Shown here: one piece after another, positions 2,859-9,122 of the stretch
Layout of the letters: each line of letters opens with the position of its first letter
Position numbering within the stretch: position 1 is the stretch's first letter
DNA from: an uncultured Gemmatimonadota bacterium
GTDB taxonomy: Bacteria > SM23-81 > DAOVCL01
Assembly: GCA_964626665.1 (NCBI GenBank)
Contig: CAZVGK010000041.1
Coordinates: 1,487 to 22,193, forward strand
DNA: 20,707 bases
Reading direction: 5' to 3'
Position numbers and translations under genes: made by a program
The notes under the pieces: generated by a model
Told to the model about the DNA's origin: nothing
Seen by the model: the letters and a program-made list of their open reading frames with translations, nothing else
Database searches by the model: none

Positions 2859-4037
2859 ATGGATATCTTCGAAAAATGTTTCCGCTACACCGCCGCCCGG
2901 GAAGCCAGGAGGGCCGGATACTATCCCTATTTTCAGGCCATAGAATCCGGGCAGGGCTCTCAGGTAACCATAAGGGGCAAAAGGATGATTATGATAGGTT
3001 CCAATAACTATTTGGGGCTTACCTCCCACCCCAAATTGCAGGAGGCAGCCATAAAGGCGGTAAAAAAATATGGTAGTGGATGCACGGGTTCAAGGTTCTT
3101 AAACGGCACCCTGGATATCCATGAGGAGCTCGAGGTCAAGCTGGCGGAATTTATGGGGAAGAAAGCTGCCCTGGTCTTCTCCACGGGTTTTCAAACCAAT
3201 TTAGGGGCGATCTCCACCCTGGTAGGCAGGGGAGATGTGGTCATTACCGATCGGGCTGACCACGCCAGCATCTTAGATGGTTGTAGGCTCTCCTTTGGCA
3301 AGCTTATGAAGTTCAAACACAACGATATGGAAGATCTGGAAAGGGCGCTGAAAACCTGTGGGGGGAAAGGAAAGTTTATCGTGGTAGATGGCATCTTCTC
3401 CATGGAGGGAGATATAGCTGATCTGCCCAACATAGTTAGGTTGGCAAAAAGGTATGGAGCCAGGGTTATGGTGGATGATGCCCATTCCATAGGGGTATTA
3501 GGGGAAAATGGCCGGGGGACAGCAGAACATTTTGGCCTGACGGATGAGGTAGATATAGTTATGGGCACATTTAGCAAGTCCTTTGCCTCCATAGGTGGAT
3601 TTATCGTCGCCCAGGAGGAGGTAATTGACTTTATCAAACACACCTCCCGGGCCCTGATCTTCAGCGCCAGCCCCCCTCCGGCCTCAGTGGCGGTGGTTCT
3701 GGCTGCCTTAGAGATAATTAAGACCGAACCGGAGAGAAGGAGAAAGCTTTGGGAAAATACCCGGATGATGTTAAAAGGCTTTAAGGATATGGGCTTTGAT
3801 ACGGGCACAAGCCAAACCCCGGTGATTCCCCTTATAATCGGCGATCAGATGAAGACCTTTACTTACTGGCGGAGGCTCTTTGAAGAAGGGATATTTGCTA
3901 ATCCAGCCATCCCCCCTGCTGTCCCCCCAGGGAGGTCTTTAATCAGGACGAGCTATATGGCCACCCATACAAAGGAGGAGTTAAACCGGGTCTTAGAGGT
4001 CTTGGGAAGGGTAGGGAGGGAACTGGGGATAATCTAA
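2859..4037 (+). CDS. spt: PLP-dependent alpha-oxoamine synthase, most likely serine palmitoyltransferase (Bacteroides-type SPT)
   Basis: [25 protein letters not shown] and the PLP lysine motif GTFSKS. The N-terminal YPYF and the [12 protein letters not shown] / IFSAS motifs are typical of bacterial SPT rather than BioF/Kbl. RBS GAGGA upstream. Confidence 0.75.
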
Positions 4038-4093
4038 CAAGGCTTTAAATATGGAATAAAGGTAACAGCACGGAATCTCGTGGAATTACACAG

Positions 4094-4226
4094 TGCGGCA
4101 AAGCCGCAACCAAATAATTCACCGCAAAGTCGCAAAGGACGCAAAGTTTAAAGATTATTAACTAATCGTTTTATTTCATCTCTCTTTTGCTTTTTATTTT
4201 CTCTGCGATCTTAGTGGCTTTGCGGT
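4094..4226. repeat. Palindromic repeat element: TGCGGC-AAA-GCCGCA hairpin plus imperfect inverted repeat 4121..4146 / 4201..4226 (CGCAAAG units)
   Basis: accgcaaagtcgcaaaggacgcaaag versus the reverse complement of ctctgcgatcttagtggctttgcggt, 20/26 matches; AT-rich interior. Confidence 0.7.
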
Positions 4227-4292
4227 TGCTACCAAACAAGGGCTACGGGGTTCACAGACAAAAAACCACTATCGTAGATCGTTTTTCATCTC

Positions 4293-4382
4293 TTCTACCC
4301 AGCTTTAGCCGGGGTAACCTCTTGGGGGCTTCAGCCCCATAGGGGCCTGAAGGGGCCCAACCCGCACTAAAGTGCGGTAGAA
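4293..4382. repeat. REP-like multi-hairpin cluster
   Basis: Bounded by ttctacc/ggtagaa; internal hairpins ggggct-tc-agcccc, gggcc...ggccc and ccgcact-aa-agtgcgg (4362-4377); ends CTAC/GTAG as in GTAG-type REPs. Confidence 0.65.
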
Positions 4383-4387
4383 CTTGG

Positions 4388-4474
4388 AGATTGCTTCGTC
4401 CCGATTTTCATTGGGACTCGCAATGACAGGCAAAAGAATGGGTCATTGCGAGGAGCAAAGCGACGAAGCAATCT
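4388..4474. repeat. Palindromic element of the GTCATTGCGAG...GAAGCAATCT type (RPE/REP-like), copy 1
   Basis: Outer 13-bp IR agattgcttcgtc/gacgaagcaatct, inner 11-bp IR ctcgcaatgac/gtcattgcgag, nested gtcccga..ttgggac hairpin; related copy at 17814..17981. Confidence 0.8.
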
Positions 4475-4643
4475 TATTCTATGCGCCCATAGCCCGCTCT
4501 CTGGGCTTAATTCTTGCAAGCCACCGATGATACCGCATCAGATGCCCTCATTTGACTGTGGAAGAGCCCTTTCTCTGCTTTCTCGCCTTTGGAATAGCTA
4601 AGCAGTAATCCACCTGGCAATTGATCCTATCTCCCCGGGCAAT

Positions 4644-4759
4644 AATGAAAAGGGGCGGACTTAAATCCGCCCCTTTTACATTCGGCGAGTTTTCGGCTTC
4701 CGCACAAAGCCACGGGAGAAAAACAGAAGCTTACTTACCCGCCTAATTTTTAATTACAA
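4644..4759 (-). ncRNA. Putative sigma54-dependent small RNA (~110-115 nt)
   Basis: Lies between a consensus -24/-12 promoter (predicted +1 near 4759) and an intrinsic terminator; no RBS-supported ORF inside; can fold GGCGGGU/ACUCGCC outer stem and GCUUCUGU/GCGGAAGC inner stem. Confidence 0.6.
4648..4677. terminator. Intrinsic terminator, potentially bidirectional
   Basis: aaaaggggcgga-cttaaa-tccgcccctttt: perfect 12-bp IR with GC-rich core and a T-run on both strands (minus strand reads ...GCCCCUUUUCAUUAUU). Confidence 0.85.
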
Positions 4760-4768
4760 TTAATATGA

Positions 4769-4786
4769 TTGCAAAAACCGTGCCAA
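4769..4786 (-). promoter_or_regulatory. Sigma54 (RpoN) -24/-12 promoter
   Basis: Minus strand reads TTGGCACGGTTTTTGCAA, matching TGGCACG-N4-TTGCW with exact spacing; about 170 nt downstream of a sigma54 activator gene. Confidence 0.88.
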
Positions 4787-4848
4787 ATTCAGATAATATA
4801 GAAAAAAATTAAGAGGAAGCTAACTGCTCGTTTTAAAAGGGTTTACAG

Positions 4849-4936
4849 GACAACCAAATTAATTTGTCTCAGAGGAGATAGCATGGATAGGCTTATAACC
4901 GCCAAAATTGACGATTAAGAAGATACAAATTTGGTA
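4849..4936. promoter_or_regulatory. Candidate upstream activator sequences for the sigma54 promoter
   Basis: Perfect palindrome caaattaatttg (4855-4866, about -100) and caaatttg (4926-4933, about -170), in the usual enhancer distance range; AT-rich background weakens significance. Confidence 0.35.
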
Positions 4937-4956
4937 ACCATTTAATTATTAAGAAG

Positions 4957-7900
4957 TTAGTTATTCGCCACAAATGACGATCCAGAAAGCTCAACGAGGC
5001 CCCCTCCCTCCAACTCATATTTTCTCATCTTCCTCCTAAGGGTAGCCTCGGGGATTTTTAGGAGCGTAGCTGCCTTTGTCTTCACCCATTTGCTCCTCTG
5101 TAGGGCCCCTAAAATGTTCTCCCTCTCAAACTCGGCTAACTGATGGGGAAGAGATCCGGGCCCCTGTTCATCCAAGGTAAACACCTGTGACCTCAGGGCA
5201 GGAGAGAGATGTTCTGGGGAAATAAACCTATCACCGGAGGCTAAGATCGTGGCCCTCTCCACCTCGTTTTTTAACTGTCTTACATTCCCCGGCCAGTGGT
5301 AGGCCGTCAGAAGCTCCATCGCCTCCTTGTTTACCCCCTTTACCTCTCCCCCCCTCTTCTCCGTGAAGAGTTCCAGAAAATGGTAGATGAGTGGAGGGAT
5401 ATCCTCCTCCCTTTCCCTTAAGGGGGAAAGCCTTATCTCCACCCCGGTGAGCCTGTAGTAGAGGTCCTTACGGAACCTGCTGGCCTCTACAGCCTTCTCC
5501 AAGTCCTTATTGGTGGCCGAGATTATGCTCACCTCTATCTTCCGAGATCTGGTTTCTCCCAACCTCCTTATCTCCATCTCCTCTAATACCCTAAGGAGCT
5601 TGGCCTGTAGCCACTCACTGGCATTGGCCACCTCATCTAAGAAGAGGGTCCCCCCCTGGGCCTCCTCAAATAGCCCCTTCTTATCCTGTATAGCATTGGT
5701 AAAGGAACCTTTCTTATGACCGAAAAACTCGCTCTCCAGGAGGGTATCGGTAAAGGCAGCGCAGTTTACCGGCACAAAATTTTTGTTGCGCCTTTGGCTG
5801 CTATAGTGAAGGGCCCGGGCAATAAGCTCTTTGCCCGTCCCTGTCTCCCCAGTGATCAGGATGGGGAGATAAGAATCCTTGAAGCTATTGGCAGTTCTCA
5901 GAGCCTCCTCCATCTGAGGGTTAATGGTCACTATGCTCCCGAAACCATACTTCTCCTCCAATCTCTCCCTGAGATAGAGGTTTTCCCTGAGCAGCTCCTC
6001 TTTTTGAAGCTCTGCCGCCTTGAGCTGGAGGATATCAGCCGCGAGGACGAAGAAATTCAGGTCCTTTTGGTCAAATGCCCCTTTGCCCCCAGTTGGGGTG
6101 CGGTCAACATAGAGGAAACCCTCAATGGAGTTGTCCCCAAAGGGGAAAACCATAAAATTCTCCACTTTCTCCTTTTTTAAGGTAGCGAAGACTTGATTAT
6201 GAACCACCGAAGTGCAGATAAACGGCTGACCAGGACTGATTGTTCTACTGGCTAAATTCTTCAAGTAGCTTAAAAGGAATTTGGCCTTTGCGGGGCTCAG
6301 GTTGTACCTGCTCATTAAGGTAAGTTCGCTGTTAGTATTAGGGCGGAAGGCGATAAAACCTCGCTCGGCATGCACTCTCTCGGAGAGAAAACGGAGCAGA
6401 AGCTCCATATCCTCAGGGGAGATGTGGTCAAGCCTATCTAAAGCAGTCCTCTCCTCCCTAATCAGAAGGGAGGAGGCGGCCAATCTCTCCTCCATTTTAA
6501 CCCTCAAGGTCAATATCTCCTTGAGACCATCCTTTTCACTTATCCTTCTAAAAATCCTCTCAGCCGATTCCAACGGCCCCAGGGCCCAGTCTGGATTTGT
6601 CCCGTTCATCTGGGCTTTGGCCAATTCGATCTCCACTAAGCCCTCCTCATAATGGGCCCCCAATCCCTGGAATGTCCTCCTTGCTTCCCTCAGTTGTTCG
6701 ATGGTCCTTCTCCTCCCCTCATCTTTCTGAGGGGCGAGAAGGCTAAACCTGCTCTCTACAAGAATCGTCTTCCCCTGTTCAAACCTTTCCCCAATGGATT
6801 TAAAGACCTCAACGGCCTTGCGGAAATTCGTTTCGGCTGCTCTCTTGTCCCCCTCTGCCTGAGAGATGAGAGCCAGAACCCGATAGCAGCAACCTTCCTC
6901 AAATCCATCTTTCAGGTCCTGAGAGATCCCTAGGGCCTCCTGGGCACACCTCGTGGCCTCTTTTAAATCTCCCCCCGCGGCAAGGTAAAGCTCTGCCCTC
7001 CTCCTCTGCACCTGGTTGACCAGGTCTCCCCGGGGGGCCAACTTCCTGGCAATCTCCCATGTCCTTTGATAGTAGCCAGAAGATGGTTCAAAGTCCCCTT
7101 TTTCTTTAGCCAAATCACCCAAAGATTCCAGGCTCATCGCCTCCTGTCTGGGGTAACTATGCCCCTGACAAAGGCCAAGAGCCTTCTGCAGGAATTTCTC
7201 AGCCTCCCCCCATCTCCTCTGCACTATGTAGATCCTCCCCAAGGAGATGTAACCATTCACGATGGGGAGGGCTTCCCCTATCTTCAGCTTAAGCTCTAAG
7301 CTCGCCTCCAAAAGGTTCAGGGCCTCCCTCCACTTTCCCATCCTCCGGTGGAGGGTACCCAAATTCCCCATCAGGGCCGCTCTTTCCCTCTCCCACTCCA
7401 GAGGGCAGATCCGCAACCCCTTCTGCAAGTACTTCAAAGCCTCATCCCACTCCGCAGTCATAAAGGCGACCTGGGCCAAGCTGTTTATGGCCTTGAGCAT
7501 CCCCTTCTTTTCGTTGATCAATCGGAAGGAGGAGAGGCTATCCTCGAAGTAATCCTTCGCCTCCCTTAGATTGCCCTTACGGAGCGAGATCCTGCCCAGG
7601 CAGTGCTCGGCATCGGCCAAAAGCCCATGTTCGCTGGTAGCCAGAAGCTCCTCAAAGACACCCTGGGCGATCTCCTTTGCCTTGTCATATTCCCCCAACT
7701 CCAGCCGCAGGTTGGCCTCTAAGATAAGCAGCCGGTAGCGCTCCTGCGGCCCGCAAGCCGACCTTTCCACCTTGCCTGTTTGCCTTAGACCATAGCGAAA
7801 CTTTCCCAGCCGATAGAGGCAGTCAGCCAACTCTATGCCTACCTTTGCCCTTGCCTGAGAAAGCGCATTGGATATTTGGAGGCCCTTTCTATATCCCTGG

Positions 7901-7988: not shown

Positions 7989-8294
7989 TTATCTCCAAAG
8001 GGAGATGATGAAATATCTGATTTGGGACCAGAGGGAAGCTAACTTCCCTCGCCGCACCCGGCCCTTTTTGGCGGATTTATTTAGAAAAAGGGACTGGGGG
8101 GAGTGGGATGTGCCTCGATCTGGAAGCACAATGGCACTGGTGTCAGGGTTGGTCGAACCATCTTTGTTTTGGTTATAGATGTCATCCCAGGGCTCGGCCT
8201 CATTGTAGTCCACACCCGATCCCGCAGTAGAGAGGGATGTCCCTCCTAATCCCAGCAGAAGGATGGCTGTCGCCAACATTAGTTTTCTCTTCAT
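7989..8294 (-). CDS. Small protein with N-terminal signal peptide, putative secreted pro-peptide
   Basis: MKRK + hydrophobic LMLATAILLLGLGG + SLSTA|G cleavage-like site; RBS AAAAGGA upstream (ATG 8294 or GTG 8297); stop 17 nt before the activator start; directly behind a sigma70 promoter. Confidence 0.75.
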   Translation of the reverse strand: MKRKLMLATAILLLGLGGTSLSTAGSGVDYNEAEPWDDIYNQNKDGSTNPDTSAIVLPDRGTSHSPQSLFLNKSAKKGRVRRGKLASLWSQIRYFIISLWR

Positions 8295-8324
8295 CACACC
8301 GGTCCTTTTAATGATTTCACCTAA

Positions 8325-8353
8325 TTAATAACAAATTTGTTCCCCTTTGTCAA
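8325..8353 (-). promoter_or_regulatory. Sigma70-type promoter for the small protein / activator operon
   Basis: Minus strand TTGACA-N17-TATTAA with TGn extended -10; the spacer holds the perfect palindrome AACAAATTTGTT (8330-8341). Confidence 0.7.
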
Positions 8354-8562
8354 GTCCTTTTTTGGGGTTCACCGGAGAATTCCCCAAAAAATTAACCCCC
8401 TGAGGAATTTCCCATGAGATTTCACTATAGATTGCGGGGGAAGAACCTTTAGGAAGTTGCCTCAAAGTGGCCAAAGGTTTAGGATGGCCCCCTTGCAGTG
8501 CTTGGCCCCTGGCCATACCCACCCCTCTATCTGGTCCTTTCAAAATAGAGCGGGGAAAGTTG

Positions 8563-8591
8563 TTGACAACAATTTACCTATTTGTTATTTT
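8563..8591 (+). promoter_or_regulatory. Sigma70-type promoter for the HNH-trpS operon
   Basis: TTGACA-N17-TATTTT with TGn extended -10, 27 nt before the ATG at 8619. Confidence 0.65.
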
Positions 8592-8618
8592 AAAGCTCTA
8601 AAGGGGGAGTGCTGGCCG

Positions 8619-9122
8619 ATGTTAGAAAGAAGGGTCCTGGTCTTAAACCAAAATTATGAGCCCTTAGGGGTATGCACGGCCAAAAGGGCTATTATACTTA
8701 TCTTCTTAGGTAAGGCGGAAATAGTGGAAGAGGATGGCAAATTCATCCATTCCGTATCCTTGGTCTATCCCCTTCCCAGTGTGGTGAGGCTGATATTCTT
8801 TATCTCCCGTCCTAGCAGGAGAATAATCCTCTCTCGCCGAAACATATTGAAGAGAGATGGATACAGATGCCAGTATTGTGGCAGCGCCAGCAAACCCCTC
8901 ACCGTGGATCATATTATACCCCGCAAATTGGGAGGAAAGGATGTCTGGGAAAACCTTATCTGCGCCTGCACCGATTGCAACAATAGAAAAGGGAATCGCT
9001 CCCCAGAGGAGGCCGGGATGAAACTGCTTAAGACCCCTTCCAGACCGACATATATCACCTATATCCAGCATTTCATCGGTATATCCGATTTGAAATGGAA
9101 ACCATACCTTTTCTTGAGTTAA
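8619..9122 (+). CDS. HNH endonuclease (McrA/COG1403-like)
   Basis: VLVLNQNYEP N-terminus, RD..RCQYCG, TVDHIIP..GG..WENLICAC..CNNRK; start at ATG 8619 after GGGGGAG RBS (ORF-track start 8457 would run through the promoter). Confidence 0.9.
   Translation: MLERRVLVLNQNYEPLGVCTAKRAIILIFLGKAEIVEEDGKFIHSVSLVYPLPSVVRLIFFISRPSRRIILSRRNILKRDGYRCQYCGSASKPLTVDHIIPRKLGGKDVWENLICACTDCNNRKGNRSPEEAGMKLLKTPSRPTYITYIQHFIGISDLKWKPYLFLS

Follow-up and report, generated by a model that had tools for sequence, protein, structure and literature searches.

A stretch of 20,707 nucleotides (nt) from an uncultured Gemmatimonadota bacterium (contig CAZVGK010000041.1, positions 1,487 to 22,193; hereafter the window) carries a cassette of three elements: a gene for a small, putatively exported protein, a gene for a sigma-54 activator with N-terminal tetratricopeptide repeats (TPRs), and a unit in which a sigma-54 promoter drives a candidate small RNA. 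An acidic Pro-Trp segment of the small protein is predicted to bind the TPR groove of the neighbouring activator. In our preferred reading, held at a probability of roughly 0.4, the activator has the small protein as its cognate, signal-bearing partner, which acts as a peptide-type signal of a private channel. The cassette of small protein, TPR activator and small RNA looks like an undescribed signalling circuit. Its novelty is the adjacent pair of pro-protein and TPR receptor joined to a sigma-54/small-RNA output. The coordinates of all features are collected in Table 1.

The small protein and its conservation

The open reading frame (ORF) of the small protein begins with ATG at 8294 and ends with the TAA stop at 7991–7989 of the minus strand; a GTG is located at 8297, 3 nt ahead of this ATG, and the gene is preceded by an AAGGA ribosome site. 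Full-length relatives, the matches of an exhaustive search and a ratio of nonsynonymous to synonymous substitution rates (dN/dS) of 0.20–0.51 in ten of ten orthologue or close-paralogue pairs argue that this is a real gene and not a chance ORF. Six of the 16 candidates that share sequence words with the protein match it at E ≤ 1e-21, with 52–93% identity and 100% coverage. The exhaustive search of 1.84 billion representatives gave seven matches at E ≤ 0.001, four of them full-length relatives of ~101–105 residues and three partial matches within long proteins, the latter taken for low-complexity matches. The putative, near-consensus sigma-70-like promoter of the small-gene/activator operon was omitted by the consensus promoter scan, the rule of which demands T as the last base of the −10 element; the same TTGACA...TATTAA stretch is also present upstream of the orthologues in genomes G001 and G002.

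The conservation of the protein is bipartite. In the orthologue alignment the leader and the motifs Y.E.EPWDDIY and SLW.QIR..L.R are kept, and the low-complexity middle is variable. The leader was judged by sequence rules across 30 family members. In all of them the N-region has a charge of +2 or +3, an uncharged run extends over 13–25 residues with a mean Kyte-Doolittle hydropathy of 1.4–3.4, and small residues occupy positions −1 and −3 of one or more candidate sites; in most paralogues these include an A-x-A site followed by N. A lipoprotein reading of the window protein was ruled out, as it contains no Cys and hence no lipobox. An xPW motif is found at residues 33–42 in every one of the 30 members. 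In 28 aligned members the one invariant element is the P-W pair, with A-x-P-W close to invariance; the residues following P-W sort into groups (DDIY, DEYY, HW.Y, SDGGW and others), and the tails sort into groups too.

The C-terminal tail has a net charge of +2 to +4 in most family members, and its last ~20 residues are basic and then aromatic. Trp together with at least 10 hydrophobic and at least two basic residues occurs within the last 25 residues of 23/23 genus copies and 11/19 distant copies. The best 19-residue hydropathy of the tail does not exceed 1.24 in any of the 30 members, which rules out a transmembrane anchor. Known C-terminal sorting tags (PEP-CTERM, the type IX C-terminal domain and similar) gave no Pfam or NCBIfam match, and the tail has no hydrophobic span. 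Neither Pfam (one member scanned) nor NCBIfam (four members) yielded a family match for the protein itself. The ESM Atlas model has a predicted template modelling score of 0.20 and a mean predicted local distance difference test (pLDDT) of 0.48, so the protein is predicted to be mostly unfolded, with no stable fold. The ESM Atlas search returned only unnamed clusters at 0.80–0.82, below the meaningful level, and profile searches in 61 and in 7 genomes gave zero matches outside the genus.

The original prediction, made from the window alone, had described a leader, an acidic aromatic segment, a low-complexity linker and a basic tail, and this layout is indeed present in the 101-residue ORF. It had also named three observations that would speak against it, namely a missing leader, a lack of conservation and conservation spread uniformly as in an ordinary folded protein; the leader features, the dN/dS values and the bipartite pattern point the other way in each case. 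The amphipathic character proposed for the tail holds for the orthologue group of the window (helical moment 0.46) and does not extend to the whole family (0.06–0.54). The alternative role suggested there, a membrane-associated modulator, is weakened by a tail too polar for an anchor; a helix bound to the membrane surface would still be compatible with it.

The neighbouring activator and the docked segment

The activator matches Sigma54_activat (PF00158, 9.3e-65, residues 690–855), AAA_lid_14 and HTH_8 (residues 954–994), and its N-terminal repeats match TPR_12 (3.1e-31) and TPR_MalT (1.8e-21) in Pfam. Positions 26–438 of the NifA model, found in the NCBIfam search, align with residues 524–922, a range that points to a GAF-like middle domain; the Pfam scan of residues 478–694 found no GAF domain. 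The Walker A (GETGTGK) and Walker B (LFLDEV) motifs are intact. The sigma-54 contact loop L1, around residue 760, reads GSFTNA and not GAFTGA, with F-T retained. Across 23 genus activators this loop is GSFTNA in eight and G(A/T)FT(G/D)A in ten, and it was unmatched in five (four truncated, one full length). The AAA+ domain, rpoN in the genome (E 2.3e-56), the cognate −24/−12 promoter and the candidate enhancers are the features expected of an enhancer-binding protein of the NtrC/NifA class, to which the activator can be assigned from its sequence. Among TPRs of solved structure, its closest matches in sequence are those of designed consensus proteins, of LGN/Pins and of kinesin light chains.

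The complex of TPR residues 1–500 with residues 24–101 of the small protein was predicted with our own alignments supplied for both partners, along with three controls. The scores were 0.66, 0.65 and 0.64, and all three controls scored 0.00; the score mark in the calibration of the tool, which is only roughly applicable with own alignments, is reached by 116/157 solved complexes and 2/215 mismatched pairs. The runs share at least 46% of contacts, with pLDDT of 86–88 for the TPR part and 37–39 for the partner. Confident contacts of the partner are limited to residues 31–41 (NEAEPWDDIYN), which occupy the groove of the modelled TPR domain. The contacted TPR residues include N163, N203, R246, R275, E282 and D316, that is six of the 15 invariant columns in the alignment of 22 TPR sequences over 500 residues. 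Within residues 100–399, conservation is slightly higher in the interface columns than in the remaining ones (entropy 1.26 vs 1.56, p = 0.049). The other interface positions (154–160, 167, 196, 199–202 and 236–243) vary by motif group.

TPR residue 170 touches W36 in the complex model. It is Phe in 20 and Met in two of 22 genus activators, and Phe, Phe and Tyr in the three loci of other phyla with a His-Pro-Trp motif. In 23 loci without Pro-Trp, which have a GDPD-type motif instead, the same position is Lys in 21, Asn in one and Leu in one. N203 and R275 are retained in all 19 distant loci aligned. The covariation at residue 170 is the pattern expected if the Trp has a genuine pocket.

The proposal that the EPWDD segment is a ligand of a neighbouring TPR array has thus gained ground in both parts: the array is confirmed by Pfam, and the docked segment, the contacted invariant columns and the covarying residue 170 support the binding in silico. 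The original prediction had suggested aligning the small ORFs to see whether the leader and the Pro-Trp motif alone are conserved and covary with the pocket. Both elements are conserved and the Trp covaries with residue 170 across phyla; the tail turned out to be conserved too, and the covariation within the genus is confounded by ancestry.

The small-RNA output and recurrence of the cassette

The sigma-54 promoter behind the activator gene is the sole perfect match within the window. A site with ≤ 1 mismatch lies on the same strand 175–303 nt past the activator stop in all five complete cassettes of this genome; genome-wide there are 72 such sites in 6.3 Mb, both strands counted, and the chance expectation is ~0.005 per cassette. 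At ≤ 2 mismatches a site follows the activator in 18 of the 20 assessable genus cassettes (the misses being L047 and L049). Four further cassettes are unassessable, being cut by contig ends or devoid of an activator. Two candidate enhancer palindromes are located ~120 and ~190 nt upstream of the promoter, and both are kept in the orthologous cassettes of G001 and G002. The pattern CGTCA-N4-TGGCG occurs three times in the whole 3.17-Mb genome, twice at the window cassette, and another cassette group has GTCCA...TGGAC sites in its place. The palindromes thus differ between cassette groups and are found almost nowhere else in the genome, so that each activator appears to be wired to its own small RNA.

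The fold of the candidate small RNA has a minimum free energy of −46.1 kcal/mol (z −5.16), and none of 200 shuffles is equally stable. Between three species its ~60-nt core differs very little, compared with a synonymous divergence (dS) of 1.5–1.8 in the adjacent coding DNA of the small ORF. No ORF of at least 60 residues was found on the minus strand at 4038–4956 (longest 50 residues), and the next gene converges. The Rfam scan of the window gave no match at the gathering score, the best sub-threshold E being 0.14. The sequences downstream of the cassettes form three conserved non-coding types. In this genome types B and C are confined to cassettes, and the core of type A, to which the window belongs, is present at three other places as well. 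The alignment fold of type B comprises a long-range stem and hairpins, with compensatory change in 4/45 pairs. A feedback in which each small RNA would pair with the leader of the small gene in its cassette gave no signal: the mean energy is −33.2 kcal/mol for cognate and −32.9 kcal/mol for non-cognate combinations.

Several observations were made in the surroundings of these RNAs. The additional type A cores, ~55 nt long, lie in genome G000 on contig 10 near 42334–42389 and 53181–53210 and on contig 15 (the contig of locus L019) near 67814–67866. They have no sigma-54 promoter ahead and are preceded instead by an AT-rich run of ATTC-containing heptads; such a run is also found ahead of the small genes in one cassette group. 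The palindrome GGCAGAAC...GTTCTGCC, similar to repetitive extragenic palindromes (REP), is dispersed in intergenic DNA, including the regions upstream of several small genes. It was rejected as an enhancer of these genes on account of its dispersal and its presence inside some small RNAs. A REP-like insertion occupies one loop position of type B in 6/9 aligned copies (L050, L052, L053, L056, L057 and L059). Type C small RNAs in contigs 12 and 15 of G000 are followed, ~600 nt past the promoters, by a conserved Lys/Glu-rich ORF of ~50 residues with an MESDD start. In the window itself the ~600 nt from the small RNA to the converging aminotransferase gene (4038–4640) contain no ORF of at least 60 residues (longest 51), and the G+C content is lower, 0.44, over 4001–5000.

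The cassette is repeated within the genus. The narrower alignment (A1) gave two loci in the related-locus search. Within this genome, the sequences that the orthologue profile matched only weakly proved to be paralogues of the small gene. A broader profile revealed 24 family members in three of seven genomes of the phylum: six in this genome, and 13 and five in two other species of the genus. In the same search they were absent from the four phylum genomes of another family. A homologue of the TPR activator directly follows the small ORF on the same strand in 23/24 copies, with a gap of 2–32 nt in 22 of these 23. The copy without an activator behind it (L063, G001 contig 164) is a truncated member of 64 residues which ends just past the Pro-Trp motif. 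In L054 (G002 contig 98) and L059 (G001 contig 161) the activator frame is split into two overlapping pieces, through either a frameshift or faulty assembly; both cassettes retain the small gene and the sigma-54 site. A metagenome scan with the TPR alignment added ten loci, seven of them with a genus-type small ORF upstream.

Of 398 genomes outside the genus, about 20 contain full-length homologues of ~950–1080 residues that match the TPR profile at E 1e-55 to 1e-81. An ORF of 86–125 residues with a leader-like N-terminus lies directly upstream of the activator homologue in all 19 distant loci examined; in one of these, L104, the scripted choice of the small ORF is doubtful, and a better one of 89 residues was seen on inspection. 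The motif of the distant small ORFs is mostly of the GDPD type, with His-Pro-Trp in three loci. A sigma-54-like site is present 196–410 nt past the activator in 12/19. The three-part layout is common to the distant loci and to this genus, which differs by its A-(E/W)-P-W core with own flanks and by its 5–13 cassette copies per genome. Across phyla the small proteins are linked by synteny and layout and not by homology. A sigma-54 promoter upstream of the small gene, which would allow autoinduction, was found nowhere in the genus, and the 19 distant loci contain one poor site. The paralogous cassettes and the sigma-54 small-RNA output go beyond what the original prediction had read from the window.

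On the other side of the small gene, a divergent ORF with an HNH endonuclease domain (PF01844, 5.6e-16) is located at 8457–9122 of the plus strand, just upstream of trpS.

Table 1. Positions of the cassette elements in the window, with the basis or a remark for each
Feature	Position	Strand	Basis or remark
Gene of small, putatively exported protein, 101 residues	7989..8294	-	Conserved ORF, no known family
Predicted Sec-type leader, from residue 1 to about 24 (MKRK, then a hydrophobic core, candidate small-residue site between STA and GS)	8223..8294	-	Rule-based check
Trp-acidic motif YNEAEPWDDIY, residues 30-40, predicted TPR-binding segment	8175..8207	-	Invariant in orthologue group
Basic stretch and aromatic C-terminal tail, residues 73-101	7992..8078	-	Alignments, hydropathy
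Sigma-70-like promoter of small-gene/activator operon (TTGACA 8353-8348, 17-nt spacer, TATTAA 8330-8325)	8325..8353	-	Read by eye, inferred
TPR / GAF-like / sigma-54 AAA+ / HTH_8 activator, 1004 residues	4957..7971	-	Pfam; ATG 18 nt past small-gene stop
Candidate enhancer site 1, an imperfect CGTCA-N4-TGGCG palindrome that overlaps the last codons of the activator	4966..4979	-	Conserved
Candidate enhancer site 2, CGTCA-N4-TGGCG	4900..4913	-	Conserved
Sigma-54 promoter TGGCACGGTTTTTGCA, 0 mismatches to TGGCAC-N5-TTGCW	4770..4785	-	175 nt past activator stop
Candidate sigma-54-dependent small RNA, ~115 nt	4645..4759	-	Start inferred from promoter spacing
Intrinsic terminator hairpin ending the candidate small RNA	about 4647-4682	-	Fold

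Mechanism, alternatives and relation to known systems

The data can be assembled into the following mechanism. The small gene and the activator gene would be expressed from one sigma-70-type operon, and the small protein would be exported by Sec with removal of its leader. The Pro-Trp segment, then only a few residues from the new N-terminus, may fit into the concave groove of the TPR superhelix, with the A-x-P-W core on the invariant ladder of Asn, Arg, Glu and Asp and the variable flanks on the groove residues that differ between paralogous cassettes. Occupancy of the groove would switch the AAA+ module, and the activator bound at its two palindromes would open the sigma-54 promoter, so that the small RNA is the output of the cassette. 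The several cassettes of a genome, with their differing flanks, tails and enhancers, could then operate as parallel private channels of a cell-cell or envelope signal. As to the route, the linker is probably cut outside the cytoplasm and the Pro-Trp fragment taken back up; a transporter of the OPT family is the sole candidate importer found. The tail probably serves the handling of the pro-protein (retention at the membrane surface or recognition by a protease) and not TPR binding, which is speculation. Re-import is ranked first, by a small margin, because the 5–13 diversified cassettes, with a copy number that shifts between species, resemble private channels.

A number of points weigh against this scheme. 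The ligand is exported, yet the sensor is cytoplasmic, and the host is a diderm, with seven Omp85 matches in its genome. SBP_bac_5 (the binding protein of Opp/Dpp), PTR2 and SbmA gave no match in this 99.65%-complete genome; the SBP_bac_5 search found its target in 11/14 control genomes. Since SBP_bac_5 is absent from a near-complete genome, Opp-dependent re-import, which is a defining feature of RRNPP systems, is unavailable to the host. The single OPT transporter, encoded on contig 38 of the genome, is unlinked to any cassette, and no processing site, protease or exporter accompanies the cassette. Apart from the leader, no feature of the superfamily is as widely conserved as the tail, which the scheme does not explain and which has no confident placement in the complex model. 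The evidence on the leader is rule-based throughout, the fold of the partner in the complex model is uncertain, as its pLDDT indicates, and the flank-groove covariation within the genus suffers from the shared ancestry mentioned above. Finally, the model may partly recall solved peptide complexes of kinesin light chains or LGN, because the nearest TPRs include kinesin light chains, which bind Trp-acidic and Tyr-acidic motifs.

The difficulty of the route would be eased if the TPR domain bound the Pro-Trp segment before export, while the full-length pre-protein is still inside the cytoplasm. Removal of the pre-protein by Sec would then free or arrest the activator, and the cassette would report the status of export or of the envelope. 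FlgM/sigma-28 and the type III chaperone-coactivator pairs follow a similar logic. Such an export-coupled switch needs neither an importer nor passage of the outer membrane, in accord with the diderm envelope and the missing Opp, PTR2 and SbmA. The short gaps between the two genes (2–32 nt) suggest coupled, stoichiometric synthesis, the docked segment stands right behind the leader of a protein small enough for post-translational export, and the lack of a linked processing enzyme causes no problem. We nevertheless consider the switch less probable, at about one chance in four as we would judge it, for Sec export is constitutive, which leaves the sensed quantity unclear, and so many paralogues with differing flanks and enhancers are hard to justify for one export-status signal. 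The tail stays unexplained here as well.

Alternatively, the small protein would be an envelope protein merely co-transcribed with the activator, in favour of which the wide conservation of the tail can be cited. As a stress or surface factor, for example, it would act through its tail in the periplasm or at the membrane surface, and the TPR domain would sense something else, for which the GAF-like domain is a possible other input. In that case the docking would be artefactual, produced by the memory of Trp-acidic motifs in the prediction model; the low pLDDT of the partner and the existence of similar solved complexes are consistent with this. This appears rather unlikely to us. The adjacency is kept in 23/24 genus copies and a leader-bearing small ORF lies upstream in all the distant loci; the motif, and not the tail alone, is conserved; residue 170 and the Trp vary together between phyla, and the three controls of the complex prediction all scored zero. 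The operon, moreover, has no sigma-54 promoter, so the small gene is not a target of the activator. The anti-activator also considered in the original prediction, which would tether the activator at the inner membrane through its leader or tail, is improbable: the long N-terminal hydrophobic run (24 residues in the window protein) and the basic aromatic tail would suit it, but a positive N-terminus inside places the Pro-Trp motif and everything after the first helix outward, the hydropathy of the tail is below the need of a membrane span in all members, and paralogues have textbook A-x-A cleavage sites.

The preferred reading, a cognate partner that signals through the TPR groove, invites comparison with three kinds of known system. 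Groove binding has a precedent in kinesin light chains. According to PMC6214655, their TPR groove binds Trp-acidic (SKIP, TNLEWDDSAI) and Tyr-acidic (JIP1, ...EDIYLE) motifs. The TPRs of the activator are related to them in sequence (E 1e-11 to 1e-14), and in both cases the ligand is disordered and acidic with a key Trp, followed here by D-I-Y, with binding in the concave groove predicted here. In contrast to the activator, kinesin light chains belong to a eukaryotic motor-cargo system and not to a transcription switch. The likeness, by analogy, is also a structural precedent for the predicted binding.

Quorum sensing by peptides that are detected in the cytoplasm counts as a speciality of Gram-positive bacteria and of the phages that infect them. 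The RRNPP pairs (Rap-Phr, NprR-NprX, PlcR-PapR, PrgX, Rgg-SHP and AimR-AimP) come from Bacillota and phages, and PMC10075063 gives them a five-point signature, including a pro-peptide of 10–100 residues beside a receptor of about 250–500 residues, with an N-terminal TPR treated as suspicious. In such pairs the receptor has its TPR sensor at the C-terminus and an HTH or phosphatase effector at the N-terminus; the pro-peptide is exported by Sec (or PptAB), cut outside the cell to a pheromone of 5–10 residues and taken up through Opp. The cassette resembles them in that a small gene for a pro-protein, probably exported by Sec, adjoins a cytoplasmic TPR receptor predicted to bind a short linear segment of that pro-protein. 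Several diversified paralogous pairs per genome are common to both, and the paralogue expansion with diversified motifs is reminiscent of the multi-copy Rap-Phr pairs of Bacillus. The adjacency and the TPR array agree with the signature, and the pro-protein, at 101 residues, is just over the size limit. The receptor, however, has 1004 residues; its domain order is reversed (N-terminal TPR, GAF-like, sigma-54 AAA+, C-terminal HTH_8); its output is a sigma-54 AAA+ module and not an HTH or phosphatase alone; and the host is a diderm with a genome devoid of an Opp-type binding protein. No RRNPP receptor was present among the best 60 solved-structure matches of the TPR domain. Because receptor size, domain order, host type and Opp import all fail, the pair is not, as far as its sequence tells, an RRNPP member, and the RRNPP membership considered in the original prediction has to be given up.

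The output side has closer relatives. LuxO-Qrr of Vibrio and GlrR-GlmY of enterobacteria are pairings of an activator with sigma-54 small RNAs of the same kind. In Nla19-Pxr of Myxococcus an enhancer-binding protein is likewise accompanied by an adjacent sigma-54-dependent small RNA, as reported in PMC5568312. All three share with the cassette an activator, an intergenic enhancer, a sigma-54 promoter and a structured RNA of ~100 nt with a terminator, as well as several paralogous activators driving related small RNAs. They differ in the input, which here is a TPR domain (with the GAF-like domain) and a partner protein, not a phosphorylated receiver; and the RNAs of the cassettes, in contrast to Qrr, Pxr and GlmY, have no Rfam match.

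Full-text searches gave no description of such a cassette, subscription-only papers lying outside their coverage. It is conceivable, although rather doubtful, that diderms of several uncultured phyla use channels composed of a Trp-acidic or GDPD-type pro-protein, a TPR activator and a dedicated small RNA, with uptake other than by Opp. These would be a counterpart of RRNPP outside Bacillota with an output like that of LuxO/Qrr, and the 5–13 cassettes here would be so many private channels. We know of no account of how most sigma-54 activators of environmental bacteria are switched. The cassette offers a defined unit in which the ligand would be a motif of 11 residues, the sensor a TPR groove lined by an invariant ladder of Asn and Arg, and the output one small RNA controlled from an almost unique enhancer. 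It poses the question by what route an exported signal reaches a cytoplasmic sensor in a diderm without Opp. If the predicted binding is true, activators with TPR sensors would receive their first ligand class, the new small-RNA family would receive its regulator, and the natural series of paralogues would make a ready specificity panel.

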